Below are positions 1,630 through 59,381 of a stretch of 64,000 bases of DNA, piece by piece. The notes under the pieces were generated by a model, which ran no database searches, was not told the origin of the DNA, and saw nothing but the letters and a program-made list of their open reading frames with translations. Numbering within the stretch: position 1 is the first letter of the stretch; the number at the start of each line of letters is the position of its first letter. The stretch comes from a virus: IMG/VR virus record IMGVR_UViG_3300034122_002202, positions 32,001-96,000 of that record. One strand, 5' to 3'. The translations under genes and the position numbers were made by a program.

Positions 1630-3854
1630 TGCCTAGCGTTTGCGTTTCTGGTGCTGGTAACCCTGTTGCAAATGGAACCTATACACAAAGTGGCAGCGTA
1701 TGGATAAAAGATGTAAACACAAGCATAGAATATGAAAATGACTATGGTGACAGAGACTATGCTTGGATGTTACGATATCAGGGCAATTTATTATATCAAA
1801 GTGCATCAGCTTCAGCTACACCAGCAACTACTGGATGGGTAACTGTTTATGGCACTGCTCCTGCACCAACAGTTACAGCAGGAGCATGTGCAGAACCTAC
1901 TACTACAACTACTACAACAACTGCTGAACCTACTACAACTACTACAACTACTACTACAGCAGCACCTTTAGTTGACCCATACTGTGTTTCTGGTGCTGGA
2001 ACCGCTGTTGCTAACGGAACATACACTTTTGTAAATAGTTCGTACAACATGTTTATGTCTGGATATTGGCAGCATGTGAGCGAGATAAATTTGAAGATGG
2101 GCTATGGCATGATGGGGTCGTATGAAATCTACAATGATTACACTAGACTTTATTACGCATCGACCTTAACTGGCACTTGGACTGTAGATTATGGTACTGG
2201 ACCTGCACCAACAGTAGCATCAGGGGAGTGTGGAACAACTACTACCACTACTACTTCAGCACCAACTACTACAACTACTACTACTGCTGCACCAACTACT
2301 ACAACTACTACAACTACTACTACTGCTGCACCTACGACTACAACCACAACAACACTACCTCCAGATAAAATTCGTATTAAAAGATCTAGTACATCTTCTT
2401 CTGTTCCTGCTACACTTTTATTGGGTGAATTAGGGATAAATATAGTAGATCAAAAAGTTTGGGTTGGAAACAGTAGCGAAGTTCCTGTTGTGTTGTCAGA
2501 TTATCAAAATACTTTTGTATATCAAGGGGATTGGGATCTTGCTGTTAATTACAAAAAGAACGATGTGGTAAAACGGAATGGTTCTTTTTATATGACCACT
2601 CGTTCTGTTGCTAACAATGGAGTAGACCCCGCTACAGATAACGGAACAGGTGGTTGGCAAATATTTTCTAACACTGTTGGAAACCAAGGATTTCAAGGAA
2701 GCCAAGGACTACAAGGTTTGCAAGGCAATCAAGGTGCAGCAGGAACTAATGGATCTCAGGGGAACCAAGGTTACCAAGGTGTCGTTGGAACTACTGGTTC
2801 ACAAGGTTTACAAGGATTGCAAGGTGCATCAGGAAACAATGGATCGCAAGGTTTTCAAGGATTAACTGGAACAGGGAATCAAGGTTGGCAAGGTGAACAG
2901 GGATGGCAAGGACATCAAGGGGATCAAGGATGGCAGGGCGATCAAGGATTCCAAGGAAGACAAGGTTTTCAAGGTCATCAAGGGGATCAGGGTTGGCAGG
3001 GTGATCAAGGTTTTCAAGGCATAACAGGAACAGGCAATCAAGGCAATCAAGGTTTTCAAGGTATAACAGGAACAGGGAATCAAGGTTCTCAAGGAAACCA
3101 AGGTTCACAAGGCAATCAAGGAAATCAAGGCACACAAGGATTTCAAGGTCAACAAGGAAACCAAGGATTTCAAGGAAACCAAGGATTTCAAGGAAATCAA
3201 GGCACAACCGGAACGGCTGCTACTGCTGGGGGGTCTAGTGGGCAATTTCAATACAAAAATGTATCTGGGGGACTTTCTGGGGCTGCTGCATTAACTTATC
3301 AAGCTGTAGCTGGAGATGATATAGGTGTTTACGCTACTTCTAGTTCTCAAGTTCCACTTGTTGTCCAAGGAGCAACTAGTCAAACCAACAATCTTTTTGA
3401 AATTAGATCTTCAAATGCAACAGTTCTTTTATATGTTACTCAATCTGGTGGTTTAAATGTTAGTGGTGGAGACATAGTAGTAGCTGATAGCAATTTAGTT
3501 ATCAAAAATAGTGGTAATGGTCGAACAATCACAATAGCAAAACCTTCTACATTTGCAGCCAGTTATACGCTAACTTTACCTCAGAATGCAGGAACAGCTA
3601 ATTATGCACTTGTAACTAACGGGTCAGGTACATTATCATGGGCTTCAAGTGTTTTAAGTGCAACTAATCTCGCTGGTGGTGGTGCAGGGCAGATACCTTA
3701 CAATACTGCATCTGGTGCAACAAGCTTTCTTGCTGCTGGAACAGCGGGGCAAGTATTGCAATCCAATGGAACAGCAGCACCTTCTTGGGGTACACAAACT
3801 TCTAAGTCATCAGGAAGCGATATTTTCTTAGCTAACAATTTTGGAGGTTTATAA
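1629..3854 (+). CDS. Multidomain collagen-like fibre/adhesin protein
   Basis: Two copies of a CVSGAG..ANGTY module, poly-Thr linkers, an Mtd_N/hyaluronidase-like segment (KIRIKRS...GELGINIVDQKVWVG), a CBM5/12-like motif (YQGDW...YKKNDVV..NGSFY), G-X-Q collagen, and a fibre-type C-terminus. TAATG coupling to the upstream gene. Confidence 0.75.
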   Translation: MPSVCVSGAGNPVANGTYTQSGSVWIKDVNTSIEYENDYGDRDYAWMLRYQGNLLYQSASASATPATTGWVTVYGTAPAPTVTAGACAEPTTTTTTTTAEPTTTTTTTTTAAPLVDPYCVSGAGTAVANGTYTFVNSSYNMFMSGYWQHVSEINLKMGYGMMGSYEIYNDYTRLYYASTLTGTWTVDYGTGPAPTVASGECGTTTTTTTSAPTTTTTTTAAPTTTTTTTTTTAAPTTTTTTTLPPDKIRIKRSSTSSSVPATLLLGELGINIVDQKVWVGNSSEVPVVLSDYQNTFVYQGDWDLAVNYKKNDVVKRNGSFYMTTRSVANNGVDPATDNGTGGWQIFSNTVGNQGFQGSQGLQGLQGNQGAAGTNGSQGNQGYQGVVGTTGSQGLQGLQGASGNNGSQGFQGLTGTGNQGWQGEQGWQGHQGDQGWQGDQGFQGRQGFQGHQGDQGWQGDQGFQGITGTGNQGNQGFQGITGTGNQGSQGNQGSQGNQGNQGTQGFQGQQGNQGFQGNQGFQGNQGTTGTAATAGGSSGQFQYKNVSGGLSGAAALTYQAVAGDDIGVYATSSSQVPLVVQGATSQTNNLFEIRSSNATVLLYVTQSGGLNVSGGDIVVADSNLVIKNSGNGRTITIAKPSTFAASYTLTLPQNAGTANYALVTNGSGTLSWASSVLSATNLAGGGAGQIPYNTASGATSFLAAGTAGQVLQSNGTAAPSWGTQTSKSSGSDIFLANNFGGL

Positions 3855-3856
3855 CT

Positions 3857-4303
3857 ATGCCAGTGACATCAACACCTATTTTTCCTCAAGCCCCATACTT
3901 TGTTGCAAAAACACTTGCAGCACAAACAGCATGTACAACTAGAGGCCCAACAGCAACGGCTAGCCTTGCAGCAGCTAACATCATCGAAGTTGTGCCGACT
4001 TCTACCAATGGCCTAAGAATTGATAGCATCCAAGTCAATGCTTGTTCTACTTCTTTTACTGCACCTACCGCTGGTAATATCGTAGGCATATGGGTATGGG
4101 ATGGCACTACAGCTTATTTGTTTACAGAAATACTTGTGACCGCTGTAACTCCTTCAACTACTGTTGCTGGATTTACTACTACATTGACTTTTGCCAACCC
4201 TCTTGTTTTACCATCTACATTTAAACTTTTTGCCTCCGTTAGTGTTACTACTACCGCTAGCACTACTGCATTGCAAGTTTGTGTAATGGGGGGAAGTTAT
4301 TAA
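3857..4303 (+). CDS. Small beta-rich virion/fibre-associated protein
   Basis: GGAGG RBS; 148 aa; lies between fibre and collar genes. Confidence 0.55.
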   Translation: MPVTSTPIFPQAPYFVAKTLAAQTACTTRGPTATASLAAANIIEVVPTSTNGLRIDSIQVNACSTSFTAPTAGNIVGIWVWDGTTAYLFTEILVTAVTPSTTVAGFTTTLTFANPLVLPSTFKLFASVSVTTTASTTALQVCVMGGSY

Positions 4304-4989
4304 TGGCTGGAGCGTTTAACTATGGCATGATACCAAGCAATTCGCCAAAGGGTTCTGCGTTTCAAGCAGTCCAAGAAACTACTATATCGTCTGGTATTAT
4401 TCAAATGTTTGCTGGTTCTACTGCTCCAAATGGGTGGCTTATATGTGATGGAAGTACTGTTAGTAGAAAGACTTATGGCGATTTATTTAAAGTTATTGGA
4501 ACCACATATGGGGCTGGCAATTCCAATACTACATTTGCATTACCAGATATGAGAGGGCGATTACCCATAGGTGCTGGAACAGGCACATCTTTGACAACTA
4601 GAACTTTAGGGGCGAATTTGGGTGCAGAGACAGTAACATTAGCACAAACAAATCTTCCACCACATACCCATACCGCTACAGTTGGAACACAAAGTGCTAA
4701 TCATACTCACACAGGTACAAGCGGTGGTCAAAGTGTAAATCATACACATAGCTATGGTTTACCGATAGGAACTACTGGAGCTACAAATGGTATTATAGAT
4801 TCGCTTACTGCTAGTAGTTCGGGAACACCGCAAACAGGTGGTAATTCTGTTGGTCATACTCATTCAACTACATTCGGAACTCAAAGTGCTACGCATACAC
4901 ATACAGTTACCAATTCAAACACAGGTAGTGGAACGCCATTTGGAATTATGCCCCCATCAATAGCTATTAATTTTATTATAAAGATATAG
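4303..4989 (+). CDS. Phage tail-collar domain protein with HxH needle, paralogue 1
   Basis: Collar motif GIIQMFAG..AP.GWLICDG...LF..IGTTYG....F.LPDMRGR and five HxH motifs. Start moved to ATG 4303 (TAATG overlap; matches the paralogue N-termini). Confidence 0.9.
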   Translation: MAGAFNYGMIPSNSPKGSAFQAVQETTISSGIIQMFAGSTAPNGWLICDGSTVSRKTYGDLFKVIGTTYGAGNSNTTFALPDMRGRLPIGAGTGTSLTTRTLGANLGAETVTLAQTNLPPHTHTATVGTQSANHTHTGTSGGQSVNHTHSYGLPIGTTGATNGIIDSLTASSSGTPQTGGNSVGHTHSTTFGTQSATHTHTVTNSNTGSGTPFGIMPPSIAINFIIKI

Positions 4990-5028
4990 GTGAAAATTGG
5001 CTGGATCTTTTTCTTATAATTCGATACC
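4967..5028 (+). repeat. 62-bp perfect direct repeat, copy 1 (junction of collar genes 1 and 2)
   Basis: ttaattttattataaagatataggtgaaaattggctggatctttttcttataattcgatacc is identical to 5658-5719. Confidence 0.95.
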
Positions 5029-5680
5029 CACTAACTTCCCTAAAGGTAGTTCTTTTGAGCCTATAAAAACACCAATCATACCGACTGGTGTAATAGAAAT
5101 GTTTGCTGGTTCTGTTGCTCCAATTGGATGGTTGATTTGTGATGGAAGTATTGTGAGTAGAGTAGCTTTTAGCGATTTATTTAAAATTATAGGCACTACT
5201 TATGGTTCTGGAAATTCTAATAGTACATTTACTTTACCAGACATGAGAGGCAGACTACCTATTGGTGTTGGTTCTGGTTCTGGTTTAACCACAAGGACAT
5301 TAGCAGCAACTCTTGGTTCAGAAACAGCGACATTAGCAGAAACCAATTTGCCTTCTCACACACATGCAACTACAGTAGGAACAGAAAGTGTTACGCATAC
5401 ACACACAGGAACAAGTGGAGGTGAAAGTGCAAATCATGTACACAACTTTTCTCATACTGCGGGTACATCTGGTTCATATGGGTTAATGGACTCAGGAACA
5501 GCTAGTAGTTCTGGTCAACCTAATACTGGTGGCATTCAGCAAAACCATACTCATGCTACTACGACAGGAACAGAAAGTGCTACCCATAACCATTCGGTGT
5601 CTAATTCTAATACTGGAAGTGGAACAGCATTTGGTATTATGCCTCCATCCATAGTTGTTAATTTTATTATAAAGATATAG
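4997..5680 (+). CDS. Phage tail-collar domain protein with HxH needle, paralogue 2
   Basis: TTG start after AGGTG RBS; same collar motif and five HxH motifs; ends VNFIIKI. Confidence 0.9.
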   Translation: MAGSFSYNSIPTNFPKGSSFEPIKTPIIPTGVIEMFAGSVAPIGWLICDGSIVSRVAFSDLFKIIGTTYGSGNSNSTFTLPDMRGRLPIGVGSGSGLTTRTLAATLGSETATLAETNLPSHTHATTVGTESVTHTHTGTSGGESANHVHNFSHTAGTSGSYGLMDSGTASSSGQPNTGGIQQNHTHATTTGTESATHNHSVSNSNTGSGTAFGIMPPSIVVNFIIKI

Positions 5681-5719
5681 GTGAAAATTGGCTGGATCTT
5701 TTTCTTATAATTCGATACC
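5658..5719 (+). repeat. 62-bp perfect direct repeat, copy 2 (junction of collar genes 2 and 3)
   Basis: Identical to 4967-5028, offset 691 bp. Confidence 0.95.
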
Positions 5720-6371
5720 AACTAACTCCCCTAAAGGTAGCTCCTTTCAAGGTTTACAATCATCCATTACTCCTATTGGTGTTATAAGATTTTTTGCTGG
5801 ATCTGTAGTTCCTAACGGATGGCTTTTATGCAATGGAAGTACTGTTAGCAGAAAAGCTTATGGCGATTTATTTAAAGTAATAGGAACAACTTTTGGTGCT
5901 GGCAATTCTAATGACACTTTTACTTTGCCTGATATGAGAGGCAGGATTCCAATTTGTGCAGGAACAGGCACTTCTTTAACCACTAGAACTTTAGGGTCAA
6001 ATGTAGGAGCAGAAACCGCAACACTATCTGAAGCTAATATGGCTTCTCATACTCATACAGCCACAGTAGGAACGCAAACCGCTAATCATACACACTCAGG
6101 AACAAGTGGTACAGTGTCTGCTGATCATACGCATGGTTGGGGAAGAAATGTGGGATCGTTTGGATCATATGGCTTAAGAGATGGCACGAATAGAAGTGCT
6201 AATGGAACCCCTAATACGCAAGGAGCACATCAAGATCATAGTCATGGTACTACTACTGGAACTGAAAGTGCTAATCATAATCATACAGTTACAAATTCCA
6301 GTACTGGAGGTGGAACTGCATTCGGGATTATTCCACCAGCGATAGTTGTTAATTTCATCATAAAAGCATAG
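5688..6371 (+). CDS. Phage tail-collar domain protein with HxH needle, paralogue 3
   Basis: TTG start; collar motif; five HxH motifs; ends VNFIIKA. Confidence 0.9.
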   Translation: MAGSFSYNSIPTNSPKGSSFQGLQSSITPIGVIRFFAGSVVPNGWLLCNGSTVSRKAYGDLFKVIGTTFGAGNSNDTFTLPDMRGRIPICAGTGTSLTTRTLGSNVGAETATLSEANMASHTHTATVGTQTANHTHSGTSGTVSADHTHGWGRNVGSFGSYGLRDGTNRSANGTPNTQGAHQDHSHGTTTGTESANHNHTVTNSSTGGGTAFGIIPPAIVVNFIIKA

Positions 6372-7366: not shown

Positions 7367-7604
7367 TTGTGCTCCAGATCAAGGTGCTGTTTATCCACCA
7401 AATTATGTTGGTGCAGCAGTAAATGCAGCTTCGTTGTTGCTCATAGAATGTGCTGATTGTTATGGGAGATGTGTTTATAAAATGCAAACTATTAATCAAA
7501 TAGCTACTTGGGTTTTAGATGCTAATACTTGTTCTGAAACAATGCCTTCTGATGGAACTAGTCCATCTTCAAGCATGAGTGTAATTTATATTGCTTGGGA
7601 ATAA
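7356..7604 (+). CDS. Small Cys-rich protein
   Basis: [10 protein letters not shown]...CADCYGRC..W...C; start ATG 7356 overlaps the end of the 37-aa ORF. Confidence 0.55.
7578..7590 (+). promoter_or_regulatory. Putative late-promoter motif variant AGTGTAATTTATA
   Basis: Variant of the recurring motif, about 30 nt before the protease ATG. Confidence 0.35.
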
Positions 7605-7606
7605 TA

Positions 7607-9607
7607 ATGAAGTTAACTGATGAGATAAAGAATAAAATACAAGAATTATATGACTTAACACCAGATGATGTTCATGGTGTTTCTTTTGGTTTTAAACATA
7701 CAAATAATATTAACACTGGAAAAGTTGGGGTTGTTTTTAATGTAATAAAAAAATTAAATGAAAATGAGTTAGGAAACAATGAAATACTTCCAAAAACTAT
7801 TCGTGTAGATGGTATTGACATAATAACAGATGTTGTAGAATCAGAACCCATAAAAGGTTTAGCTTGCTACAACGATTTATATGGTCAACCACTAGAATAT
7901 TTTAATTTTACTTCTACAAATACAAATGTTACTAGATTAAGTGGTAGTTATGGTATGATAACACCATTTCAAGGTGGTCAAGAAATATCTCGTTTTCCAG
8001 ATAAATATTCTGGGAGTTGGTTTACAACAAAACCTTATATAAACACTAATGTTGGAACGCTTGGTTTTTGGGCAACAGATGAAATAGACAATAAAGTTGT
8101 TGGTGTTACTAATGCACATGTTGCAATTTCAGACTTCATAATTGCATCAGATAGAGACACACAAAAAGAATTAGATTATACATATAATATTTATGATGAA
8201 TTAGAATGGTTTATTGACAAAAAAAAACATAGACCAGGACTTTTTAGTTTTGATAATGACAGCACTAAAAAAGTTATCCGTATAGGTTCTACTAAAAGAT
8301 ATTATCCAGTTAGTTTAACAAATGCTAACTATATTGATGCTGCACTTTATTATCCAGAAAATATAAGTCATATTAATCATATTCATACCCCAACAACTAA
8401 TCCAGATAGTTATTCTTTAGAATATCCTTTTGCAACAACAGAAGAGATAGATGATTTACTATTTAATCCAACAGAAGTTTATAGTACTGGTAGAACTACT
8501 GGCCCAAAAGGTTGGAATACTTGTAAATTACAAATACAATCTATAGGTTTTTCAACTACAATTGGTTATGACGATATAAGAGGATCTAGTGTTTCTGGAG
8601 TTTCATATTCTGATTGCATACAATTTAAATATCAGCCTAGTTATAATAATTCTTTTTGGCCAGTTTTTTCTGGAGATTCTGGATCTGCATTAGTTAAAGT
8701 TATTAATGGCGTTAAAAAAATTATAGGTTTGGTTTTTGCTGGAGGAAGATTTGATGGTATAGCTGCAAGAATAGATAGAGTTGCATCTTTAATGAAGATA
8801 AAGGCTTATGATAGTGCATCATCAACCACACCATCGACACCTACTATTTATTCAATTAGTGTTACAGACCCAAGAATAAGCCAGCCAACATTAACTATAG
8901 ATGGAAAATTATATTATCAAGCTGGATTTAGAAGTTTGGGTGGTGCAACTCCCACCCCGACTCCTACGCCAACACCTAGTCCGACTCCTAGTCCAACACC
9001 TACGCCTACACCAACACCAACACCAACACCAACACCGACTCCTACGCCAACACCAACGCCTACACCGAGTCCAACACCGACTCCTACGCCAACACCAACG
9101 CCTACACCGAGTCCAACACCGACTCCTACGCCAACGCCTACACCAACGCCAGTACCGACTCCTACGCCAACACCAACGCCTACACCGAGTCCAACACCGA
9201 CTCCTACGCCAACGCCTACACCAACGCCAGTACCGACTCCTACGCCTAGCCCAACGCCAGTTGCTATACCAGAAAACAACATAAAATATAATGCTGGCGA
9301 AACATTAGACTTAAGATTAACAGATGATTATTATGCAATAGATGGTAGGGGTATAAACTTTATTTCTGATGATTATCCAAATTTAAGTGAAGTAACATCA
9401 ATGTTTTATGTTGATGGCAAAATAAATTTTTCAAAGACAATTTCTTATATTGATAGCAAAACTTTAAGACTTGAACTTAGCAGCACAAACTTACAAAGTA
9501 TTGGTGCTGGAAGATGGTCTTATGAAATTAGATCTATTTTTCCTAGTGGTCATACTGTGACAATTAGTGTTGGCAATTTAATTATCACGCCAGCATTTGG
9601 AGATTAA
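7607..9607 (+). CDS. Trypsin-like (Nal1-like, clan PA) serine protease with Thr-Pro linker and C-terminal putative anchor domain
   Basis: Catalytic triad motifs TNAHV, IDAAL and GDSGS; Nal1-type N-domain (VHGVSFGFK...LPKTI..DG...TDVVE); about 100-aa (TP)n linker; C-terminal domain shared with 12866..16474. Confidence 0.85.
8948..9259 (+). repeat. (Thr-Pro)n linker repeat
   Basis: About 50 TP/SP dipeptides with 42-bp higher-order units. Confidence 0.95.
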
Positions 9608-9610
9608 AAA

Positions 9611-12600
9611 ATGTCTAATTGTATTGATCCATTAAACATAAACTTTAAACCATCTTATGAGGGAGAACTTTTACTGTTGGGGGCATGTTCCTATACTGCA
9701 ACAGAAAAAGATGGGAATTTAATTTGGGAAGAGAATGAAGAATTGAAGGTTTATGGGGTTGGTGGTTGTAATTGTAGTGTATCACCACCACCAATATCAG
9801 ATGAAAATTTAAATCCAATACTTGCAAATTTGCCAACCTCACAAGGACAAATATATTCTACTGGAACATGTTCTGGTAATTGTGCTGAAGGAAGTACTAC
9901 ATGTCAGATTGTTGGTTTTCTTTCTAATGGTACTAATTGTGATATGGGTTGTGGATGGACTACTGAAGGTTGTGCTGAAGGATCAACTACTGAAGCACCA
10001 TTATGTTCTCCTAGTTCTTGCACTTTTAATCTGTCTGAAATTTCACCAGGAATGTATTATTATATGGAAGGCACAACATGTTTGTACGGTTGTATTTGCG
10101 ATGGAGAACGACCAGCTAGTGCAACCGAAGTGTCTCAACCTACAGTTACTTATAATTGTATACCAGCACCTACTAGTACTTCAACTTCAACTTCAAGTAC
10201 TGCTGCACCAACAACTTCAACTACTTGTAATCCAACAAGTTGCAATGGAGTTAATGCATGTTGTAATGGCGTATGTACAAATCTTAATGAAGACCAGAAT
10301 CATTGTGGTGCATGTGATGCCCCTCCATGTGCTGGCCCTTGTTGCGTTGGAATATGTTGTGCAGCAATGGAGTCATGTAGCGATGGAGTTTGTTGTCCAG
10401 CAGGGCAAGAAGGTTGCAATGGGGTGTGTTGTCCAGCAGGGCAAGGATGTTGCGATGGGCAATGTGTGACACTTCAAACTGATGCACATTGTGGTGGTAC
10501 TGGACCAGGAAGGAATGGTTGTGAGCCTTGTCTAGCAGGAAGGACATGTTGTCCTTTTAATGAATCAATAGGTATTTGCATAAATGTAAATGGCACAGAT
10601 TGGAACAATTGTGGTGGGTGTGGTGTTCCATGTCAGACTAATCAAATATGTTGTGATGGGGTGTGTGTTAGTACTGGAACTGCTGAACATTGTGCTGGGT
10701 GTGCTCCTTGTGGAGCTAATGCAACATGTTGTGGTGGTCAATGTCTTAATAATCTACCACAACAAGAATGTAATGCTTTAGTTTGGGCTGCAACTCCTGG
10801 TGGTGATAGTCCAGCATGTTATTCTGTTGGTCCAGCAAATAGTCAATTTGGTTCATGTGCAACTGGAATGCAAGTTGGTAGCAATACTTGTAATCGTCAA
10901 ATTTGTGGCGATTGTCCTTTTGAAGATTATTTAATATGTTCAACAGCATGTACTGCACTTTTAACATCTAATCCCAGTCCATCAGTTGAAGATGGCGATA
11001 CATTTTATTTTAGCACAAAAGCAGATGCAGAAGCTTTTGCTGGTGCAAATACTGGCGATTGTTTTCTTGGGTGGACAAAATTTTCTTCATCTTGTGGTTG
11101 CACTGGTTGTGAAAAGATATATTTAAATAGTCTTCCGTCTGACAGTGGTAGTGCAGGACCATTTAAAACTAAAGGATTTTGTGAATCAACCATAACCTCA
11201 AATGCATGTACAGAAGAAGAACTTCCAAATACTTATGCAGCAGATTTGACAAATAATCAATGTGGCAGTGGTGCTGCTGGTTGTTTTTCAAATGGTGCAT
11301 GTAGATGCCCTGGATCTGAGTGTCTTAGTGGTGGAACAGTTTGTGGGGATGGCGAATCTAATTTTTGTATTGGTGCATCAAGTTGTCAAGTTCAAATTAC
11401 TATAAGTTATAGTGTTAATACTGGTGGTGTAAATGTTCCACAAACATCTACTACTATAGCAAGTGGAACTATGTTGTCTCAGTATTCTCTTGTTCAAGTT
11501 GCAAATGTAATACCAGAAAACATTAATGATACAGTTTATGGTTATTTAAAATTAGAAACAAGCGATACTTTTGTTAATAGCACAGGGCAGAGTTTAGGGG
11601 CGAATGTTACTTCATCTGTTACAATTTTTCAAAACACAATAGAAAGTGAGCTTTCTGGATCGGCAACAGTAACTGTTCTTCCATATTGTCCTGCATCTCC
11701 ACCACCATCGCCCCCATCGCCCCCAAGCCCTAGTCCATCGCCTAGCCCCAGTCCGTCACCTTCACCGAGTCCATCACCTTCGCCATCGCCTTCACCTAGT
11801 CCTAGTCCATCACCTACACCGAGTCCAAGCCCGACTCCTAGTCCATCGCCAACGCCTAGCCCAACACCGAGTCCTACACCAAGCCCGACTCCTAGTCCAA
11901 CGCCTTCACCGACACCGAGTCCAACGCCTAGCCCTACACCTTCACCTAGTCCTACACCTAGTCCATCGCCATCGCCTAGCCCGACTCCAAGCCCAACGCC
12001 AAGCCCGACTCCTAGTCCAACGCCTTCACCTACACCGAGTCCAAGCCCGACTCCTAGTCCAACGCCTTCACCGACACCGAGTCCAACGCCTAGCCCTACA
12101 CCTTCACCTAGTCCTACACCTAGTCCATCGCCATCGCCTAGCCCGACTCCAAGCCCTAGTCCAACCCCTTCACCTACACCGAGTCCTACACCGAGTCCTA
12201 CACCTAGTCCATCGCCATCGCCTAGCCCGACTCCAAGCCCTAGTCCAACCCCTTCACCTACACCGAGCCCTACACCAAGCCCGACTCCTAGTCCAACGCC
12301 TTCACCGACACCGAGTCCAACGCCTAGCCCTACACCTTCACCTAGTCCTACACCTAGTCCATCGCCATCGCCTAGCCCGACTCCAAGTCCAACGCCTAGT
12401 CCAACACCTAGTCCAAGCCCAAGCCCAACGCCTTCACCTACACCGAGTCCAAGCCCGACTCCTAGTCCATCGCCAACGCCTAGCCCAACACCGAGTCCTA
12501 CACCAAGCCCGACTCCTAGTCCAACGCCTTCACCGACACCGAGTCCAACGCCATCGCCTAGCCCGACTCCTAGTCCAACGCCTTCACCTACAACTATTCC

Positions 12601-12856
12601 AAGTCCTTTAATTTACAACATTGATTATTCTGCAAGAACAACAACATCAGTAACAGTTACTTGGCGAAGTGAGATACCATTAACTAGTCGTGTTTTATAT
12701 GGAACAACACAGGTTTTATCTCCATCGACTTATCCAAATTATGGTTATCAAAATTCAACAATAGAAAATACTCAACTAACTACAACACATAGCATTACTG
12801 TCACTGGTCTTTTGCCCAACACAACATATTATTTTAGACCAGTTGGTCATATATAG
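9611..12856 (+). CDS. Cys-rich protein with STIG1-like repeats, Ser/Thr-Pro stalk and C-terminal FN3-like domain
   Basis: About four D..(N/H)CG.C motifs, many other Cys, a stalk of about 300 aa (SP/TP)n, and C-terminal VTVTW...[17 protein letters not shown] (FN3 signature). Confidence 0.8.
11696..12592 (+). repeat. (Ser/Thr-Pro)n mucin/extensin-like repeat
   Basis: GC-rich tract with three near-exact copies of about 110 bp starting near 11881, 12043 and 12277. Confidence 0.95.
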
Positions 12857-12865
12857 GAGTTTAAA

Positions 12866-15800
12866 ATGAGTTGTTCTCAAAGTTGTACTTATTCATTCGA
12901 CACTTACTCAGGATATTGGGTTCTTGTAAACCCATGCAGTGAAGGTAGTTGTGTGTGTCCACCATCACCTCAAAGGGTTGGAACTCTTGGTGAGCAGGTA
13001 ACTTATGATTGTATACCAGATGGATCAGGAGATGATGGTTGTTTTCCATCATGTGGCGAAGGTCTTACTTGTTGTGCTTTTCAAGATGTAATACCAGGAC
13101 CATTTGCATATGAATGTGTAAATTTGTTAACAAATGATCAAAATTGTGGCAGTTGTGACAATTGGATAATTGGCACAATCTGTTGTAATGGTGTTCAAAA
13201 ATATTATTTGACTGATGAAAACAACTGTGGAACTTGTGGTCATGTATGTGCTCCAGATGAACATTGTTGTGGGGGTGCATGTGTTCCTAGATTACAAAGA
13301 TGGAATTGCTCAACTTGTGGCACAGTTTGTGAAAATAATGAAACATGTTGTAATAGTGGTTGTTCAAATATTTGGTATGATGCAGCAAATTGTGCTGGTT
13401 GTGAAAATGCTTGTCCTCCTGGTCAAATATGCAATCTTGGCGTATGTACGCCTCCCTGTCCTACTGGTACTCATCCATGTGCTGGAGAGTGCGTTTCAGA
13501 TAATGCAGAATGTGATGTCTGTAATAATTCATGCGTATACCCTTTGGGATGTTGCAATAATCAATGTGTCAATGTAAATACAGATAATTCAAATTGTGGT
13601 AGCTGTGGAAATATTTGTCCTATTGGTCAAATATGTTGTAATGGAAATTGTATAGATCCTCTAACAGATAGTTCAAATTGTGGTGATTGTGGAATAGTTT
13701 GTGAAGCAGGAAGACTCTGTTGTGATGGGCAATGCGTAACACTTAATACTAATGCAAATTGTCGTGGTTGTGGAATTACTTGTGCTGAAGAAGAAGAATG
13801 TTGTGGCAATGGTTGCACAAATACTTTAACTGATAATTCAAATTGTGGTGCTTGTGGAACTGTTTGTGGTACTGGAACGGCTTGCTGTAATGGAATCTGT
13901 ATAGATATCTTAGAAAACGATGCAAATTGTGGTGCTTGTGGAGTAACCTGTGGCGTAGGAGAAGCATGTTGTGACGGAAGCTGTATAGATATATTAAGCG
14001 ATGAATTACATTGTGGTGGTTGCACTGCTTGTGCTCAAGATGAAATGTGTTGCGATGGAATATGTAAAGAAGTATTAACAGATAGATTAAATTGCGGTAG
14101 CTGTGGAACTATTTGTCAGGGAATATGTTGCAATGGAATTTGTATAGATCAAACAATAGATAATGCTAATTGTGGTGATTGTGGAGTAGTTTGTGCAGCA
14201 GGAAGAACTTGTTGTGAGGGTCAATGCGTTTTAGATTCAGTTGCTCTATGTTGTGTAAATCCAGTTTCTTTACAGAAAAAAATAACATATTTTAAAGGTG
14301 ATAATAATAATTGTGGCAGTTGTGGAAATGTCTGTGCTATAGGAGAAACATGTTGTGATGGTCAATGTAAAAATATAAGTACTGACAATGATAATTGTGG
14401 TGCTTGTACATGGGATTGTCTTCCTCCTGCTACATGTATAGAGGGAGAATGTACCAGTCCATTTTGTGGCGGTTCATATATTCCTTGTGCGAGTGATGAA
14501 TTTGGTGATCCCTATGCGTGTTGTTTTGGAGAATGTAAAGATCTAAATTTAGATTCAGAAAACTGTGGTTCTTGTGGAAATGTTTGTGGTCCTGATGAAG
14601 AATGCTGTAATGGTCAATGTACAAACACTATGGGTGATCCTAATAATTGTGGTGCATGTGATGCTTTTCCATGTGTTGGTTCTTGTTGTTCTGGAGTTTG
14701 TTGTGATCAAGCAGAAAAAGTGTGTTGTTTTGGTGAATGTATAAATTTAAATACAGATTTTTCAAATTGTGGAGATTGTGGAGTTCAATGTGCATCAGGA
14801 GAATATTGTTGTGATGGAATATGCATAAATATAAGAATAGATATTGAAAATTGTGGGGGTTGTGCAACTCCTTGTGCAGAAGGTCAAATATGTGTTGATT
14901 GGGAGTGTGTTAATCAATCGCCTAGTCCAAGCCCCAGTCCATCACCTTCACCGAGTCCTAGCCCTAGTCCATCGCCATCGCCTAGCCCAAGCCCCAGTCC
15001 GTCACCTTCACCGAGTCCTAGCCCTAGTCCATCGCCTTCACCAAGTCCTAGCCCTAGTCCATCGCCATCGCCTAGCCCAAGCCCCAGTCCGTCACCTTCA
15101 CCAAGTCCTAGCCCTAGTCCATCGCCTTCACCAAGTCCTAGTCCAACGCCTTCGCCTACACCTAGCCCAACGCCTTCACCGACTCCAAGTCCAACGCCTA
15201 GCCCAACGCCTTCACCAAGTCCTAGTCCAACGCCTTCACCGACTCCGAGTCCAACACCTAGCCCTAGTCCAACGCCTTCACCGACTCCGAGTCCAACACC
15301 TAGCCCGACTCCTAGTCCAACGCCATCGCCTACACCAAGCCCAACACCTAGCCCGACTCCTTCGCCAACGCCTTCACCGACTCCGAGTCCAACACCTAGC
15401 CCGACTCCTAGTCCAACGCCATCGCCTACACCAAGTCCAACGCCTTCACCGACTCCTAGTCCGACTCCTAGTCCAACGCCTAGCCCTACACCTTCACCTA
15501 GTCCAACGCCTAGCCCAACGCCTAGTCCAACACCGAGTCCTACACCTAGCCCGACTCCAAGCCCAAGCCCAACGCCTTCACCGACACCTAGTCCATCGCC
15601 AACGCCTAGTCCGACTCCAAGCCCAAGCCCAACGCCTTCACCTACACCGAGTCCTACACCTAGCCCGACTCCAACTCCAACACCGACTCCAACGCCAACT
15701 CCTACACCAACTCCAACACCGACACCTACCCCAACGCCTACACCTACTCCTACGCCAACGCCTACTTCAGAAGAATATCTTGGTTATGAAATAGCTGTAT

Positions 15801-16474
15801 TTACATCTAACTTAAATCCTAATCCATCAGAAGGATTTACTTTAGGGGTTAGTCTTTCTTTGGGAAAAAGATATGAAAATTGTCAAAACATATATGCACA
15901 ATTAATAAATGGTGATGGAACAAATTATGGCGTTTCACATTCAACAGGATTTGTAAATCTTACAAACGGAAATTATCTATTTACTGGAATAATACCAACA
16001 TCATTTAGAGGTGCGATTAAGTTTTATTGTGGGTCTGAACTTTTAGGTGCTACTGCAATTAATCCAGAAGAATATGAAAATGTAGATGTTAAAGTAAGTA
16101 CAAGGTGTGCTACTTCTGGAGTAGGAGTTCCAGCATTAACAAATCCAATACCAATTAATCCAGAAGATCCTATAGAACTAAGACTCACAGATGACTACTT
16201 AACAGAAGAATCAAGGTCGATAGACATAACTTCTGTTGATTGGCCAGATCTAACTGGTTCTACTACAGACTTTATGATTGATTCTAGACCAACATTCATT
16301 AAACGAGCACAGCTACTTAATGGAACATCTTTAAGAATTGAACTTAGCAATGAAGAATTAGCACAAATTGGGGCAGGAAGGTGGTCATATGAATTTAGAT
16401 CTACATTATCTAATACCCATATAATTACGCTGTCTGTTGGCAATATAGTTATAGTGCCACCATTTACCGATTAA
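12866..16474 (+). CDS. STIG1-like Cys-repeat protein with Ser/Thr-Pro stalk and C-terminal putative anchor domain
   Basis: About 18 repeats of CC.G.C.....D..NCG.CG..C, a stalk of about 280 aa SP/TP, and two C-terminal beta domains, the last homologous to the protease C-terminus. AGGAG RBS. Confidence 0.85.
13130..14910 (+). repeat. Tandem STIG1-like cysteine repeats (about 28 aa unit)
   Basis: [61 protein letters not shown] and others. Confidence 0.9.
14918..15766 (+). repeat. (SP)n-(TPSP)n-(TP)n stalk repeat
   Basis: Direct reading of the translation. Confidence 0.95.
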
Positions 16475-16479
16475 AATAT

Positions 16480-16492
16480 GGTGTATTATTAA
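16480..16492 (+). promoter_or_regulatory. Putative late-promoter motif GGTGTATTATTAA
   Basis: Intergenic, upstream of 16524. Confidence 0.55.
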
Positions 16493-16523
16493 TTGAAACA
16501 ATACTCTAACCATAGAGGCTATT

Positions 16524-17054
16524 ATGTACTGGCAAGCAGAATTCATAACATTATTGAGAGTTTTACTAGACGATTTAGTTTCTCCACAACTCTATACAGA
16601 CAAACGACTTACGCAAGTAATTGCTGTTGCTGCTCAACTAGTTACTTCAGAATTAAGATTTGCAAATAATTTTCAAGTTGATATTCAAGCACTTACAATT
16701 AATCCTAGTCCAGTAGATAGGGCGACTACTAGAGATGACAACTTTATAAATTTAGTGACTATAAAATCAGCATGTTTAATAGAGCGTGGCGAGACAAGAA
16801 GGGCTGTTGGTCAAGGAATTGCTATTAGAGATGGTAGTTCTTCTATTGACTTGCGTGGAACTATGGATGGTAGAATGAAATTACTAGAAAAGGGTTGGTG
16901 TTCTGTTTACGAAGAAGTTAAACTAGAATATCAAACGGCAAGAGTTGGATTAGTAGCTGGTGCTGCTATAATGAGTCCGTTTAGAATATTTGCTGGTTCT
17001 AGAGATCAAGTTTATTATACTAGCAATGAAGGCAGAACATTTTTCCCAAGATAA
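16524..17054 (+). CDS. Putative head-tail adaptor/neck protein
   Basis: LRVLLDD...YTD..L N-terminal pattern typical of head-tail connector proteins; synteny. Confidence 0.5.
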   Translation: MYWQAEFITLLRVLLDDLVSPQLYTDKRLTQVIAVAAQLVTSELRFANNFQVDIQALTINPSPVDRATTRDDNFINLVTIKSACLIERGETRRAVGQGIAIRDGSSSIDLRGTMDGRMKLLEKGWCSVYEEVKLEYQTARVGLVAGAAIMSPFRIFAGSRDQVYYTSNEGRTFFPR

Positions 17055-17065
17055 GGAGTAGGTAG

Positions 17066-17524
17066 ATGGCAACTCATCATATAATTAATAGCGGTGTGAT
17101 TAAAATTGGATCTTCAACTATTCAACCAACTGAAGGGCATCCTTCTGGAGAAGTAACTACTTACAATAGGGTTGATGTTAGAACATTTTCTGATATTGAA
17201 CCAGTAAATTTAAGTAGAAATTTTGGCTATTACAATGTAGATACTAGCATGAGCGATAGTCTTGAAGATGGTTCTAGTGCTATTGCTGCAACAGGAATTA
17301 GCCAACAAATCTTCCCTGCAAAATCAGGAAGAAATTATTTTTACTTTAAAAACAATTCTACTGGAATTATGCACTTGAATTTTGGTGAAGATGCTGATAC
17401 AACTACATCATATAATTTGGCAGCAAGTCAAGAACTAGTATTTGAAAATGGATTTGTTCCATTGGATGCTGTCAATGTTTATTCAGTTGAGCTATCTGGA
17501 TTGTTTGTTGCAAAACAGGCTTAA
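17066..17524 (+). CDS. Hypothetical virion protein (small beta-sandwich C-terminus)
   Basis: AAGGAG RBS; R.YFYFKNNS...HLNFG pattern; structural context. Confidence 0.5.
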   Translation: MATHHIINSGVIKIGSSTIQPTEGHPSGEVTTYNRVDVRTFSDIEPVNLSRNFGYYNVDTSMSDSLEDGSSAIAATGISQQIFPAKSGRNYFYFKNNSTGIMHLNFGEDADTTTSYNLAASQELVFENGFVPLDAVNVYSVELSGLFVAKQA

Positions 17525-17554
17525 TTTAAGTTTTAGGAAGCTAAAGGAGGATTT

Positions 17555-19354
17555 ATGTTTTTAACTATTGGTATGCCTACATACGATGATTTCGATGGTG
17601 TTTACTTTACACTTCAATCTCTAAAAGCTTATCATGATCTAGAAGGTGTTGAGCTTTTAGTAGTAGATACAAAGCCAAAACTTTGTGAAGACACCAAAAA
17701 ATTGTGCGAAAGTGTTGGTGCTTCCTATTATCATAGACCTGATTGTCAGGGAACAGCACCAGCTAAAAATGCAGTATTTGAACTTGCAAAAGGTAAGTTT
17801 GTTATGTGTGTTGATTGCCATGTTTTGTTAGTCAAAGACTCAATTAAAAAACTTAAAGAGTATTTAAAGCAAAACGAAAATACAAAAAATTTAATTCAAG
17901 GACCACTTCTTTACGATGATCAAAAAAGCACATCTACGCATTTTGATCCAGGCTGGAGAGGTCATATGTATGGAACTTGGGGCAATGATCCTAGAGCTAT
18001 TTCAGAAGAAGAATTTGAAATTCCAATGCAGGGTGGTGGGCTTTATTGCTGTAGAAAAGATGCTTGGCCAAAATTTCATCCAGCATTTCGTGGATTTGGT
18101 TCTGAAGAAGGATACATTCAAGAAAAGTTTAGGCAGAATGGTGGCAAAGCAGTTTGTCTAACATTTTTAAAATGGATACATAGATTTGGCAGACCAAAAG
18201 GTGTTCCATACCCATTATCTGTTGTAGATAGAATTTTTAATTATATTGTTGGTTGGACAGAAATTGGTTGGAATCATAGAGAAGTAATTAATTATTTTAG
18301 TGGTAAAGTAACGCAAGAAGAGCTATTTAAAGCAATTTCTGATTCAGCTAAATTTATTGGCAATCCCACTCCAATAAACTCTTCAGAAAAAAATGCAATT
18401 AAAGTTAAAGCTTATGTTATTGGAAGAGAAAGTGTAACTACTGAAGAATCATTTAAAAAAATTAAATGGACTAAAGAAAAAGAATATATGTTGGGTGCAA
18501 ATTTAAAATCTGTATTAGAAAAATTTATCGCAGAAGGAAATGACTATGCGTTAATATGTAAGGGTAATTTAAGGCTAGAAAAAAATATAAATATAATGAT
18601 TGATTTTTGGCCATTAATTAAAACAGGTCAAGCAAAGATAACTATATTTGATCAGATAAATAAGTCATCTCTAAAGACAAAGCATTCTCAACTTTCTTAT
18701 AAAATTGCAGATATTGACGAACTAGACGATGCACCTTTATATTTTGTTAGCAAAGATTTTGCACAAAAAGTTCTAGATGATTACAAAGAAGGTGCAGAGT
18801 TTTCTTATATTTGTGAAAAAGAAAATATTGTTCCTTTTCTTTATACATTTGAAGAAAACATTCTTAGACTTAGAATGCAATATGTTCCTCTACCTAATGT
18901 TGATGGTGGGCTTTCAGTTGAAGCAGTAAGAGAAATTGTTTGGGCAGCAAGCAACTCGTATTGTTTAGATATAAGCTCAGAAGGTCTACAAACCACCATT
19001 GCTCTTTGCCAAAGGGGTCTTGGAGTAGTTAGAGTAGATGAATATAAAAATAAATCTAAAGAGCAATTACAAACAACAATAAAGAATTTTAGCTATGAAA
19101 ACTTTATTCTTACAGATAAAGAAGATGATTTTCAAGCACCAGAAGAGAACCCTAGAACTCTACTGATTAACTATAAAGGCTTGTCTCAAGAACTTATTGA
19201 TTTTTCATTGGTCAAACAAGAAACATTTTTAAGGTCTAAGGACTGCTTAATTATAGTCAATGCAGACCAAGAAGTTGCAGATATTTATAAAAAATCTGAA
19301 AAACTTAGTGTAATTAATTCATCAGACGATTATTTAATTTTAAAGAAGCTTTAA
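17555..19354 (+). CDS. GT-A glycosyltransferase resembling polypeptide GalNAc-transferases (GT2/GT27-like), with C-terminal extension
   Basis: LTIGMPTYD, LLVVD, AKN...AKGKFVMCVDCH (DxH), PMQGGGL, GFGSEE, QNGG, HRF...PYP; strong AAGGAGG RBS. Confidence 0.8.
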   Translation: MFLTIGMPTYDDFDGVYFTLQSLKAYHDLEGVELLVVDTKPKLCEDTKKLCESVGASYYHRPDCQGTAPAKNAVFELAKGKFVMCVDCHVLLVKDSIKKLKEYLKQNENTKNLIQGPLLYDDQKSTSTHFDPGWRGHMYGTWGNDPRAISEEEFEIPMQGGGLYCCRKDAWPKFHPAFRGFGSEEGYIQEKFRQNGGKAVCLTFLKWIHRFGRPKGVPYPLSVVDRIFNYIVGWTEIGWNHREVINYFSGKVTQEELFKAISDSAKFIGNPTPINSSEKNAIKVKAYVIGRESVTTEESFKKIKWTKEKEYMLGANLKSVLEKFIAEGNDYALICKGNLRLEKNINIMIDFWPLIKTGQAKITIFDQINKSSLKTKHSQLSYKIADIDELDDAPLYFVSKDFAQKVLDDYKEGAEFSYICEKENIVPFLYTFEENILRLRMQYVPLPNVDGGLSVEAVREIVWAASNSYCLDISSEGLQTTIALCQRGLGVVRVDEYKNKSKEQLQTTIKNFSYENFILTDKEDDFQAPEENPRTLLINYKGLSQELIDFSLVKQETFLRSKDCLIIVNADQEVADIYKKSEKLSVINSSDDYLILKKL

Positions 19355-21535: not shown

Positions 21536-21581
21536 ATGAGGGTTGATTTTTGGACAGAATTTTATATGGGAGATTCATAAA

Positions 21582-22682
21582 ATGGCAAATCGAAGAATAT
21601 TTTACGCTTGTCAAGCAGTAGGTATCGCAGCAGATGGTAGCAGCACTTACCAAGAAGTTCGTGGTCTTCAATCTGTTGGTATTAATACCACTTTTAATCT
21701 TCAACAAGTTTTTGAAATCGGTATGATTTCAATCTATGAAAACATTGAAGGCGTTGCAGATGTAGAAGTTACACTTGAAAAAGTACTCGATGGTTTTCCA
21801 TTGTTGTACCATCTTGGAACTCAAGGTGCTTCTAGTTCTACTTTGGTTGGTCGATCTAATAAGAAAGCAATTCTTGCTCTTTCTATTACTGACGATACTC
21901 AAGAAGCTGCTTCTGGAGTTCCAAGTTCTACTTGTATTGTTTCTGGATGCTTTGTAAGTCAAGTTTCTTACAAAATTGGCATCGATGGAAATGCTACTGA
22001 ATCAGTAACTATGGTTGCAAACAATAAAGTTTGGAATACTGGTTCTACTGGCAAGTGGACACCAAACTTCCAACCAGTAGACAATAGTGGTAGCAATCCT
22101 ACTTGGGATGCTGATCCATATGATGAGGCGACTAATTTTAGTGCTCAACGATCTGCTTCTGGCATTGCCCAAAGACAGCATCTTAATATGAGCAAATCAC
22201 TTTTCCCAACTCAGATTCCTGGTATTGATGCTTCTGGTAAAAATACTCTTAATACTACTTTAAATTGCTTTAATACATCTTTCCAATCTGCTTCTGCTTC
22301 TGCGACTCTTGGTCGTGAACAGATTCTTGAATTGGGTCGAAAAGCACCTTACTTCCGATATACTAAATTCCCAGTAGAAGTTACTGCTGAATTTGAAGTA
22401 TTGGCAAAAGGTGGAGATGATATTGAAGTAACCGAAAGTGGTTCTGCTTTCAATAGTTACAATGGTAACAACTTGAAAGATCAGACAATTAAGTTAGTTC
22501 TTACTGAAGGTACTGTTATTGATCTTGGTACAAAAAACAAGATGCAATCTTGTAATTACCAAGGTGGTGGTGTTGACGGCAATAATGCAACTGTCACCTA
22601 CTCATTCCGAACCTTCAATGACTTTACTGTTAAGCATCCAGTAGATCCTACATCTGCTTTACGAAGCACTGCTGATCTATAA
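21582..22682 (+). CDS. Major tail tube protein (probable)
   Basis: Start MANRRIFY after GGAG; beta-rich (GLQSVGINTTFNLQQVFEIG...); own promoter motif and terminator; precedes chaperones and TMP. Confidence 0.7.
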   Translation: MANRRIFYACQAVGIAADGSSTYQEVRGLQSVGINTTFNLQQVFEIGMISIYENIEGVADVEVTLEKVLDGFPLLYHLGTQGASSSTLVGRSNKKAILALSITDDTQEAASGVPSSTCIVSGCFVSQVSYKIGIDGNATESVTMVANNKVWNTGSTGKWTPNFQPVDNSGSNPTWDADPYDEATNFSAQRSASGIAQRQHLNMSKSLFPTQIPGIDASGKNTLNTTLNCFNTSFQSASASATLGREQILELGRKAPYFRYTKFPVEVTAEFEVLAKGGDDIEVTESGSAFNSYNGNNLKDQTIKLVLTEGTVIDLGTKNKMQSCNYQGGGVDGNNATVTYSFRTFNDFTVKHPVDPTSALRSTADL

Positions 22683-41648: not shown

Positions 41649-41660
41649 CAGGAACATTAT

Positions 41661-53842: not shown

Positions 53843-53843
53843 C

Positions 53844-59380: not shown

Positions 59381-59381
59381 T

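Follow-up and report, generated by a model that had tools for sequence, protein, structure and literature searches.

The locus described here raises the question of what a virus does with a glycosyltransferase (GT) whose gene lies behind genes for long Ser/Thr/Pro-rich stalks. The GT is encoded on the plus strand at 17555–19354 (599 amino acids, aa) of a 64,000-nucleotide (nt) stretch, called here the window, which corresponds to bases 32001–96000 of the IMG/VR record IMGVR_UViG_3300034122_002202; the record is 141,809 bp long, has direct terminal repeats and is rated 100% complete. Three open reading frames (ORFs) upstream, starting at 7595, 9611 and 12866, carry (S/T-P)n stalks, and the original prediction, made from the letters of the window, held that the phage initiates O-glycans on these stalks with an enzyme resembling the polypeptide GalNAc-transferases (ppGalNAc-Ts) of family GT27. 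This interpretation is supported by a fold closest to GT27, by a motif-by-motif profile alignment and by a directional gene linkage. We therefore favour, with a probability of roughly 0.6, the reading that the GT is a soluble, cytoplasmic, metal-dependent enzyme, its N-terminal 270 aa being kin to the mucin-initiating N-acetylhexosaminyltransferases of families GT27 and GT60, and that it acts on the phage's own Ser/Thr tracts. In other words, the phage probably sugar-coats its own appendages.

The enzyme and its relation to family GT27

The 599-aa translation is divided into three domains, all encoded on the plus strand: a GT27-like GT-A catalytic domain (aa 1–270, 17555–18364) with D87-x-H89, His209, PMQGGG and GFGSEE, a small alpha/beta domain with weak GT-A-like matches (approximately aa 283–435, 18401–18859), and a domain with the class-I methyltransferase fold (approximately aa 440–599, 18872–19354). 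Every motif quoted in the original prediction was recovered at its place, i.e. VDCH at aa 86–89 (the codon of D87 begins at nt 17813), IPMQGGGLYCCRKDAW at aa 156–171, GFGSEE at aa 180–185, QNGG at aa 194–197 and HRFGRPKGVPYP at aa 209–220. Neither a signal peptide nor a transmembrane segment was found in the GT (maximum KD19 hydropathy 1.27), the first beta strand beginning the protein; the lack of a hydrophobic segment fits an action in the cytoplasm on proteins assembling there.

The AlphaFold2 model of aa 1–290 has a mean predicted local distance difference test score (pLDDT) of 89.5 and a predicted template modelling score of 0.86. When it was compared with the PDB by Foldseek, all 33 matches listed, coming from ranks 1–50, were ppGalNAc-Ts of GT27 (E 3.8e-14 to 1.8e-11, template modelling scores 0.61–0.72), covering human T1, T2, T4, T7, T10 and T12, Drosophila PGANT9 and Toxoplasma T3. 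The independent comparison by VIA-align with 48,161 representative chains placed mouse GalNAc-T1 first (Z 21.7, root-mean-square deviation 3.4, 259 residues aligned) and Toxoplasma GalNAc-T3 second (Z 21.0, 254 aligned). The next family was represented by the chondroitin polymerase K4CP (Z 18.1, 209 aligned), followed by B4GALNT1 (17.2), GlfT2 (17.1) and TarS (16.8), with the peptide S-glycosyltransferase SunS at Z 13.9. Both methods thus group the catalytic domain with GT27 and not with ordinary polysaccharide GT2s, as the original prediction expected.

At the level of profiles, the alignment of the GT family (A1, 37 sequences) was compared by hhalign with a GT27 profile (A3, 22 proteins) from a search seeded with the phage ORF L006:6548-8101 (here and below, L and a number denote a locus retrieved with relatives of the GT) and including ppGalNAc-Ts from animals (insect, fish, brachiopod), apicomplexan enzymes and homologues from phages and the candidate phyla radiation (CPR). 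The two aligned with a probability of 95.4% and an E-value of 2e-8 over 187 columns (query 33–223, 22% identity), reproducing the correspondence of motifs that had been proposed from reading the sequence: D87 and H89 are paired with the GT27 DxH (D195/H197), D38 with the Asp of VDD, P157 with P274, F181-G182-x-E184 with W301-G302-x-E304, G196-G197 with G316-G317, H209/F211 with H329/F331 (the His of GHVF) and Y219 with Y337, the paired template positions being invariant or near-invariant in A3. In the two control comparisons, A1 reached an E-value of 0.057 over 97 columns with the profile of the window's other GT2 and one of 0.0062 over 64 columns with the WcaA-like GT2 domain that comes second in bacterial fusions; neither alignment extended beyond the N-terminal, nucleotide-binding half.

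The part of the GT-A literature that deals with these families confines the replacement of DxD by DxH to GT27 and GT60, names the C-terminal His as a metal ligand in GT27, and groups GT27 and GT60 in the GT-A tree with GT7 and the chondroitin-polymerase GT2s (PMC7185993). The VIA-align ranking agrees with that grouping. Based on the above results, the N-terminal domain is a distant relative of GT27/GT60 and not a member by the usual criteria; since it carries some of the features that define GT27 and lacks others, it is termed here GT27-like.

Concerning the GT family itself, a word-indexed search yielded 639 relatives among 8,000 scored candidates. About 35 of them are near-full-length (46–98% identity), while many more match aa 1–270 alone at about 50% identity, these partial relatives being either stand-alone proteins of 340–350 aa on contigs of 100–160 kb or bacterial fusions to a second GT2, DUF7164, PqqD or ATP-grasp. 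The three-part architecture is limited to the window's clade, viral homologues being mostly stand-alone domains of 270–340 aa. The family pattern, seen also in the window's GT, comprises a domain of about 270 aa with TIG..TYDDFDG, DxH, PMQG.G, GFGGEEGY and W.HRF.RP.G..Y. All 37 sequences of A1 have D87, H89 and H209, and the positions D38, Q159, G160, G162, G180-F181-G182, E184, E185, G196, G197, R210, F211 and Y219 are likewise invariant. At E ≤ 1e-3, an exhaustive hidden Markov model search of 1.84 billion representatives returned 2,681 proteins, and 1,316 clusters remained at E ≤ 1e-30. Judged by its sequences, the family is sharply bounded and strongly conserved. The PHROGs and NCBIfam searches gave no family for the GT, and the open-access literature searched yielded no published description of the family or of the gene pair discussed below.

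The remaining two domains were modelled together (aa 271–599, pLDDT 86.2). The best structural match of the second domain is Mimivirus R699 (Z 11.2, 154 aligned, model residues 3–164), and those of the third are the sugar O-methyltransferases MeT1 (Z 14.6, 159 aligned) and SpnH (Z 14.4, 154 aligned). It should be noted that the glycine-rich loop for the cofactor S-adenosylmethionine is atypical in the window's clade, the fold itself being clear.

Stalk proteins and the linkage of the GT gene to Ser/Thr-rich tracts

The three stalk-bearing ORFs named in the original prediction all proved to be present on the plus strand, with stalks of 105, 305 and 286 aa. The first (7595–9607, 670 aa) is a head-stalk-anchor protein with a serine-protease-like head (phrog_20754 'protease' match, E 9e-9, aa 11–87; TNAHV and GDSGS motifs in the translation), a (T-P)n stalk at aa 451–555 (nt 8945–9259; S 6, T 44, P 52; S+T 50) and a C-terminal shared domain of 98 aa. 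The second (9611–12856, 1081 aa) has a Cys-rich head, a short additional S/T tract (aa 185–199), an (S/T-P)n stalk at aa 695–999 (nt 11693–12607; S 96, T 54, P 153; S+T 150) and a C-terminal FN3-like domain (Pur_ac_phosph_N match, E 2.7e-7, aa 1006–1076). The third (12866–16474, 1202 aa), again a head-stalk-anchor protein, is composed of ten Stig1-like Cys-rich repeats (Pfam match to the plant family Stig1 in 10 stretches, E 1e-79), an (S/T-P)n stalk at aa 684–969 (nt 14915–15772; S 86, T 57, P 141; S+T 143) and an anchor-like domain at aa 1105–1202. The 98-aa domain common to the first and third proteins (46% identity, E 5e-23) occurs in just these two genes of the whole genome. The stalk tracts are about 99% S/T/P, far past chance, and offer 343 Ser+Thr together; the DNA repeats underlying them are imperfect (60–88% matches), so that the repeat appears to be kept at the protein level. 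As a separate observation, cysteine makes up 11.2% of the head encoded at 9611–11692 and 19.6% of that at 12866–14914; any disulfides in such heads would have to form after assembly in a reducing cytoplasm.

The original prediction implied that GT genes of this kind should co-occur with S/T-P-rich genes, and a directional linkage of the family to genes with S/T-rich tracts was indeed found in both phages and bacteria. A profile-based scan of IMG/VR gave at least 447 stretches encoding relatives, from which 80 loci were kept; the GT ORF was recovered in 79 of them (L075 was dropped), forming 44 lineages at 90% GT identity. A tract was defined by 20-aa windows with S+T+P ≥ 80% and S+T ≥ 40%, and the flanks examined amounted to 313,525 nt upstream and 328,796 nt downstream. 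In 20 of the 44 viral lineages, the 10 kb upstream contain an ORF with an S/T(/P) tract on the same strand as the GT, and in none (0/44) is there such an ORF downstream; in 11 lineages, the upstream tract ORF ends at most 150 nt from the GT start. When genes were called greedily, a tract was present in the gene immediately upstream in 13 of 43 cases and in the gene immediately downstream in 0 of 44. Since the lineages are related, the p-values overstate independence both for the comparison of all upstream with all downstream genes (22/275 versus 0/374, Fisher p 4e-9) and for that of the first upstream gene with every other gene (odds ratio 28.7, Fisher p 2e-11). The base rate was taken from the loci themselves, namely from their downstream flanks and from all their remaining genes; control loci collected through the window's PhoH and its second GT2 numbered only 11 and 6, were mostly close relatives and proved unfit for that purpose. 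Among the 14 tract proteins encoded directly upstream, a single weak BLASTP pair was seen at E ≤ 1e-3, the proteins being otherwise unrelated outside their tracts, which indicates that the link is to the tract rather than to a particular family of proteins.

Among bacteria, each species being represented by one genome, the scan gave 403 relatives, of which 78 loci were kept (L087–L164), from Chloroflexota/Thermomicrobiales, Alphaproteobacteria, cable bacteria, Planctomycetota, Actinomycetota and others. A poly-Thr ORF is found directly upstream on the same strand in 26 of the 78 loci and directly downstream in none; if both strands and the whole flank are counted, the numbers become 35 upstream and 9 downstream, which include the off-frame noise typical of high-GC DNA. 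In 16 of the 26 poly-Thr partners (e.g. L107:4508-4897, L126:4648-4887 and L153:1306-1554), an RR-type motif resembling that of twin-arginine translocation (Tat) signals stands at the start and is followed by a hydrophobic stretch. This suggests that the bacterial partners are glycosylated in the cytoplasm and then exported in modified form.

In the FastTree tree of 123 GT domains, the linked state is scattered, being present in every major clade and requiring at least 28 changes, with well-supported branches forcing 18 of them. One clade (support 97), made up of the window, L007, L008 and L010, is linked in all its members, and these are instructive with respect to the stalks. In L007, whose GT is 98% identical to that of the window, one protein of 1,178 aa begins with the N-terminus of the 9611 ORF and continues through an SP/TP stalk and an FN3-like domain to the anchor known from the 12866 ORF; given this single joined protein, the window gives the impression that an additional head-plus-stalk module, equipped with a start of its own, was inserted. 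The L008 protein has head repeats reading like a beta-propeller ahead of a (TP)n stalk, with the same anchor behind it, and in L010 and L011 (GT 62% identical) the same N-terminus and anchor are combined with several poly-T(ASP/SAP) linkers totalling hundreds of residues. That one GT lineage is accompanied by poly-Thr or by (S/T-P)n on homologous proteins would be expected if both were acceptors, or at least equivalent spacers. The relatives (L007:5384-8917, L008:4184-6577, L010:4486-8214 and L011:3375-8219) vary in heads, stalk type and gene number, and the stalk length in close relatives ranges from 134 to more than 500 residues, the N-terminal 40 residues and the C-terminal anchor being kept; the stalk locus seems to be a hot spot at which modules are exchanged.

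The stalk genes are separated from the GT by two small conserved ORFs of 176 and 152 aa (16524–17524, plus strand). The former (16524–17054) gave a weak Atlas lead to a DUF6712/SU10_adaptor-like family, and the latter nothing usable; an ORF of 152–157 aa stands directly before the GT in L007, L008 and L010, too.

Proposed mode of action and competing explanations

For the glycosylation of the phage's own tracts, we infer which acceptor and donor are used, when the reaction takes place and what it does physically—stiffening or shielding—as follows. The enzyme would take a UDP-sugar of the host during infection, hold the sugar-nucleotide and the metal through the predicted ligands D87, H89 and H209, and place the first sugar onto Ser/Thr hydroxyls of the (S/T-P)n stalks of the 7595, 9611 and 12866 ORFs, the poly-T/TS linkers of fibre proteins probably being acceptors too. 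The sugar would be added to newly made proteins in the infected cell, before these are built into or onto the particle, and the GT's own methyltransferase-fold domain together with the phage's other GTs may methylate or extend the glycan. The outcome would be extended, protease-resistant stalks holding variable heads—here or in relatives a serine-protease-like domain, Cys-rich repeats or a beta-propeller—away from a shared C-terminal domain. The stiff bottle-brush character and the virion location of the stalk proteins, both part of the original prediction, are putative.

Several observations weigh against it. At the sequence level, the relation to GT27 is detected by profile-profile comparison only: phmmer and hmmsearch runs against PDB sequences gave no GT27 chain at E-values up to 10, the matches being to generic N-terminal GT2 parts (TarS at E 1e-3, a PglI-like GT at E 0.03–0.06), and Pfam finds in the GT just the N-terminal half of a generic GT2 domain (Glycos_transf_2, aa 4–109, E 8e-11). 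The tract gene is absent from the fetched flanks in 24 of the 44 viral lineages, 11 of which adjoin replication genes. In the window itself the GT is not adjacent to a stalk gene, lying 1.08 kb past the last one with two ORFs between them. Concerning the tracts, the partners across the GT family are mostly poly-Thr and not (S/T-P)n. Moreover, Ser exceeds Thr in two of the three window stalks (96 versus 54 and 86 versus 57), and GT27 enzymes prefer Thr.

The last two points are those that favour the main rival, namely that the GT is a protein O-glycosyltransferase limited here to the poly-T/(T-S)n linkers, the S/T-P stalks being bare, rigid, polyproline-like spacers. A scan of the window's ORFs with 12-aa windows containing at least 10 S+T identified three proteins with such linkers, each a possible further substrate and all encoded on the plus strand: a collagen-like tail-fibre protein (1629–3854) with poly-Thr linkers at aa 203–234 (nt 2235–2330), a 1284-aa protein (43024–46878) with a short poly-T/P tract at aa 1173–1186 (nt 46540–46581), and a 546-aa protein (46917–48557) with (T-S)n linkers at aa 284–309 and 427–489 (nt 47766–47843 and 48195–48383). 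The original prediction had counted four other virion genes of this kind; three ORFs were confirmed by the scan and a fourth was not found. That the directly linked tracts of the family are mostly poly-Thr with few prolines speaks for a restriction to linkers, but the nearest upstream tract genes in the window's clade are the stalk genes. In the closest relatives, in addition, the GT is accompanied by homologous proteins whose stalks are of the TP or SP/TP type (L008, L007) or of poly-T (L010, L011), and TP or TTPS repeats occur in some of the other linked tracts (L073, L085 and L041). Such a restriction is thus considered unlikely.

A somewhat less probable explanation is that the GT makes or modifies a non-protein glycan, such as a host envelope polysaccharide, a lipid-linked sugar or a capsule-like coat, its nearness to the stalks reflecting gene order. 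It would agree with the Pfam result, with the polysaccharide GT-As that follow GT27 in the structural ranking (K4CP, Z 18.1; TarS, Z 16.8) and with the many other sugar enzymes of the phage. The top matches in both structure and profile are, however, the protein-modifying GT27 enzymes, the GT has no membrane segment, and the directional linkage to unrelated S/T-tract proteins in phages and bacteria would be hard to account for.

It is quite improbable that the GT glycosylates modified bases of the phage DNA, a common role of phage GTs according to the pertinent part of PMC12619734, in which many of them are said to do so. The 11 of 44 viral lineages with the GT beside replication genes count in its favour; two of their representatives were assigned by Pfam (a PD-(D/E)XK nuclease, L045:8930-9985, and a family B polymerase, L034:1564-4200, each immediately preceding the GT), the other nine by a shared peptide or similar size alone. 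An HtrL_YibB-like protein immediately preceding the GT at L071:8237-9943 has, furthermore, a weak TET-associated-GT match, from which a DNA-directed role of the family in some lineages may be considered. In the window, however, the gene is found among tail/fibre genes, the fold is unlike the known DNA GTs among the matches listed, the bacterial homologues are encoded behind secreted poly-Thr proteins, and the replication-adjacent lineages are nested in the tree among the tract-linked ones. The least probable view, that the GT is catalytically dead or a structural or chaperone component, has nothing direct in its favour apart from the atypical cofactor loop of the methyltransferase-fold domain, and is opposed by the invariance of the metal- and sugar-binding motif positions in 37 diverse homologues of about 50% identity and by a family of 1,316 clusters at E ≤ 1e-30.

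Phage context, known systems and significance

The genes of the Tail Collar/gp10-like, tail-fibre, DnaE and PhoH types mark the window's genome as that of a tailed phage. Upstream of the GT there are collagen-like fibre proteins, a PHROG tail-fibre match and three tandem paralogues (4279–6371; 65–67% identical) with Phage Tail Collar and gp10_C domains and His/Thr-rich repeats. The placing of the GT inside a head-tail gene run thus stands for the tail and fibre genes upstream, while head genes were not identified in this analysis. The replication-type genes include a DnaE-type polymerase, PhoH and an exonuclease. An origin from a eukaryotic virus, raised by the Stig1-like repeats alone, was ruled out by the same tail-collar/gp10-like, tail-fibre, DnaE and PhoH genes. 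By sequence comparison the phage is without a close cultured relative: its DnaE-like polymerase is at most 29% identical to the 15 GenBank phage records listed and less than 60% identical to all 1,341 matching records, and among 50,697 GenBank phage records no tblastn match was obtained for the GT (E ≤ 1e-5) or for the ORF 21543–22682. Side features of the window are a single reading frame of 4,694 aa (25120–39204), two adjoining paralogous ORFs of about 450 aa each at 40269–43016 (27% identity, E 1e-16) and an ORF with a weak NUMOD3 homing-endonuclease motif (50399–51172).

A second cluster of sugar enzymes, with PhoH in between, is situated on the minus strand at 52976–60881. It consists of a weak GT1-like gene (52976–53842), a sugar-1-phosphate nucleotidyltransferase-like gene (53844–54530), a GT2 gene (54520–55293) and three GT4 genes (56560–57555, 58241–59380 and 59382–60881), which are candidate glycan-extending enzymes with a putative link to the stalks. 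Outside the window, at G000:C1 ~125,400–128,000 and ~18,100–19,200, the genome encodes a GDP-mannose 4,6-dehydratase-like protein (E 4.5e-101, below the curated cut-off), a GT2-methyltransferase fusion, a Methyltransf_24 protein, a DUF6445 protein and a protein of 235 aa in which the two GT7 domains, Glyco_transf_7N and 7C, are combined. The fusion is one of two GT2 matches found beyond the window. With these additional GT and methyltransferase genes, the phage has the means to extend and methylate a glycan.

Of the known systems, the ppGalNAc-Ts of GT27 are the best structural match (mouse GalNAc-T1, 8v9q; human GalNAc-T2, 2ffu/4d0t; Toxoplasma GalNAc-T3, 8uhv). The window's GT shares with them the DxH, AGG-like and C-terminal His motifs and a putative WGGE-like motif in the same order, as well as a genetic or functional tie to Ser/Thr(/Pro)-rich tracts. 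Unlike them, it is only 11–15% identical in structural alignments, lacks a match to Pfam Glyco_transf_7C (PF02709), for which the sole match in the genome is a different gene, and has neither a ricin-type lectin domain (no Ricin_B Pfam match, the C-terminal model being GT-A-like plus methyltransferase fold) nor a type II membrane anchor, so that it would be cytoplasmic and not of the Golgi; the extra GT-A-like and methyltransferase-fold domains are a further difference. In the region that PF02709 covers, hhalign aligns GFGSEE...QNGG of the GT with WGAEN...LCGG of the GT27 profile.

True GT27 homologues do exist in phages and CPR bacteria and co-occur with the window's GT family on viral contigs. 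The example at L006:6548-8101 is 31–33% identical to fish and insect ppGalNAc-Ts (E ~1e-37), a homology of a kind not detectable for the window's GT, and is composed in Pfam of GT2, Glyco_transf_7C and an MptE-like domain. In its surroundings (L006:1-8101), a Thr/Gly/Pro-rich ORF, a GT4 and two paralogues of the window's GT family fused to other GT2 domains are encoded along with it. Relatives of this homologue are found on contigs of 100–370 kb, some of them labelled as CPR bacteria by their sources.

The polypeptide alpha-GlcNAc-transferases of GT60 use Ser/Thr polypeptide acceptors, and some of them are soluble and cytoplasmic. The window's GT resembles them in its DxH motif and as a soluble enzyme, GT60 being present also in prokaryotes; it differs from them in profile, PF11397 ('GlcNAc') being unmatched in the GT at E ≤ 0.01 and in the genome at E ≤ 1. 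The DxH motif of GT60, its range over prokaryotes and protists and its closeness to GT27 are described in the corresponding part of PMC7185993.

Mycobacteriophage GTs are considered to act on structural proteins of the phage itself, with glycans on the C-termini of capsid and tail-tube subunits (Freeman et al. 2023, as summarized in the relevant part of PMC12619734). Common to both cases are a GT encoded by the phage and candidate acceptors among its own proteins, but the candidates here are stalks of 105–305 aa on accessory proteins, and the window's GT, unlike the mycobacteriophage type, is unmatched in the GenBank phage records searched.

A linkage between enzyme gene and substrate gene is a feature of the serine-rich-repeat adhesins of Gram-positive bacteria, too, the long Ser-rich stalks of which are O-glycosylated in the cytoplasm by GtfA/GtfB. 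These are GT4 enzymes of the GT-B fold, in contrast to the GT-A enzyme of the window.

Mucin-type O-glycosylation is regarded as a process of the eukaryotic Golgi and, to our knowledge, phage virion glycosylation is known from mycobacteriophages only. While protein O-glycosylation by GT27/GT60-like enzymes and the self-glycosylation of phages are known, a soluble phage and bacterial family paired genetically with its own mucin-like substrate has no description in the open-access literature searched. It is possible, although this broader picture is put forward tentatively, that the family is a phage and prokaryotic counterpart, perhaps even an evolutionary relative, of mucin-type O-glycosylation, in which at least 1,300 clusters of soluble GT27/GT60-like enzymes are each typically encoded right behind their own, mutually unrelated poly-Thr or S/T-P substrate. 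In phages, glycosylated stalks would then display swappable heads (protease, Cys-rich binders or beta-propellers), and in bacteria glycosylation in the cytoplasm would be followed by export of the folded glycoprotein, often via Tat; the methyltransferase fold fused to the window's enzyme may methylate the glycan. If so, prokaryotes and their viruses would have mucin-like glycoproteins of their own, and the family would be a candidate for the prokaryotic root of the GT27/GT60 lineage. A small soluble enzyme with a genetically defined substrate would, moreover, be testable in E. coli and could help to make mucin-like glycopeptides. The particles of such lake phages would carry a sugar coat, which could alter their adsorption, protease resistance, grazing and stickiness.

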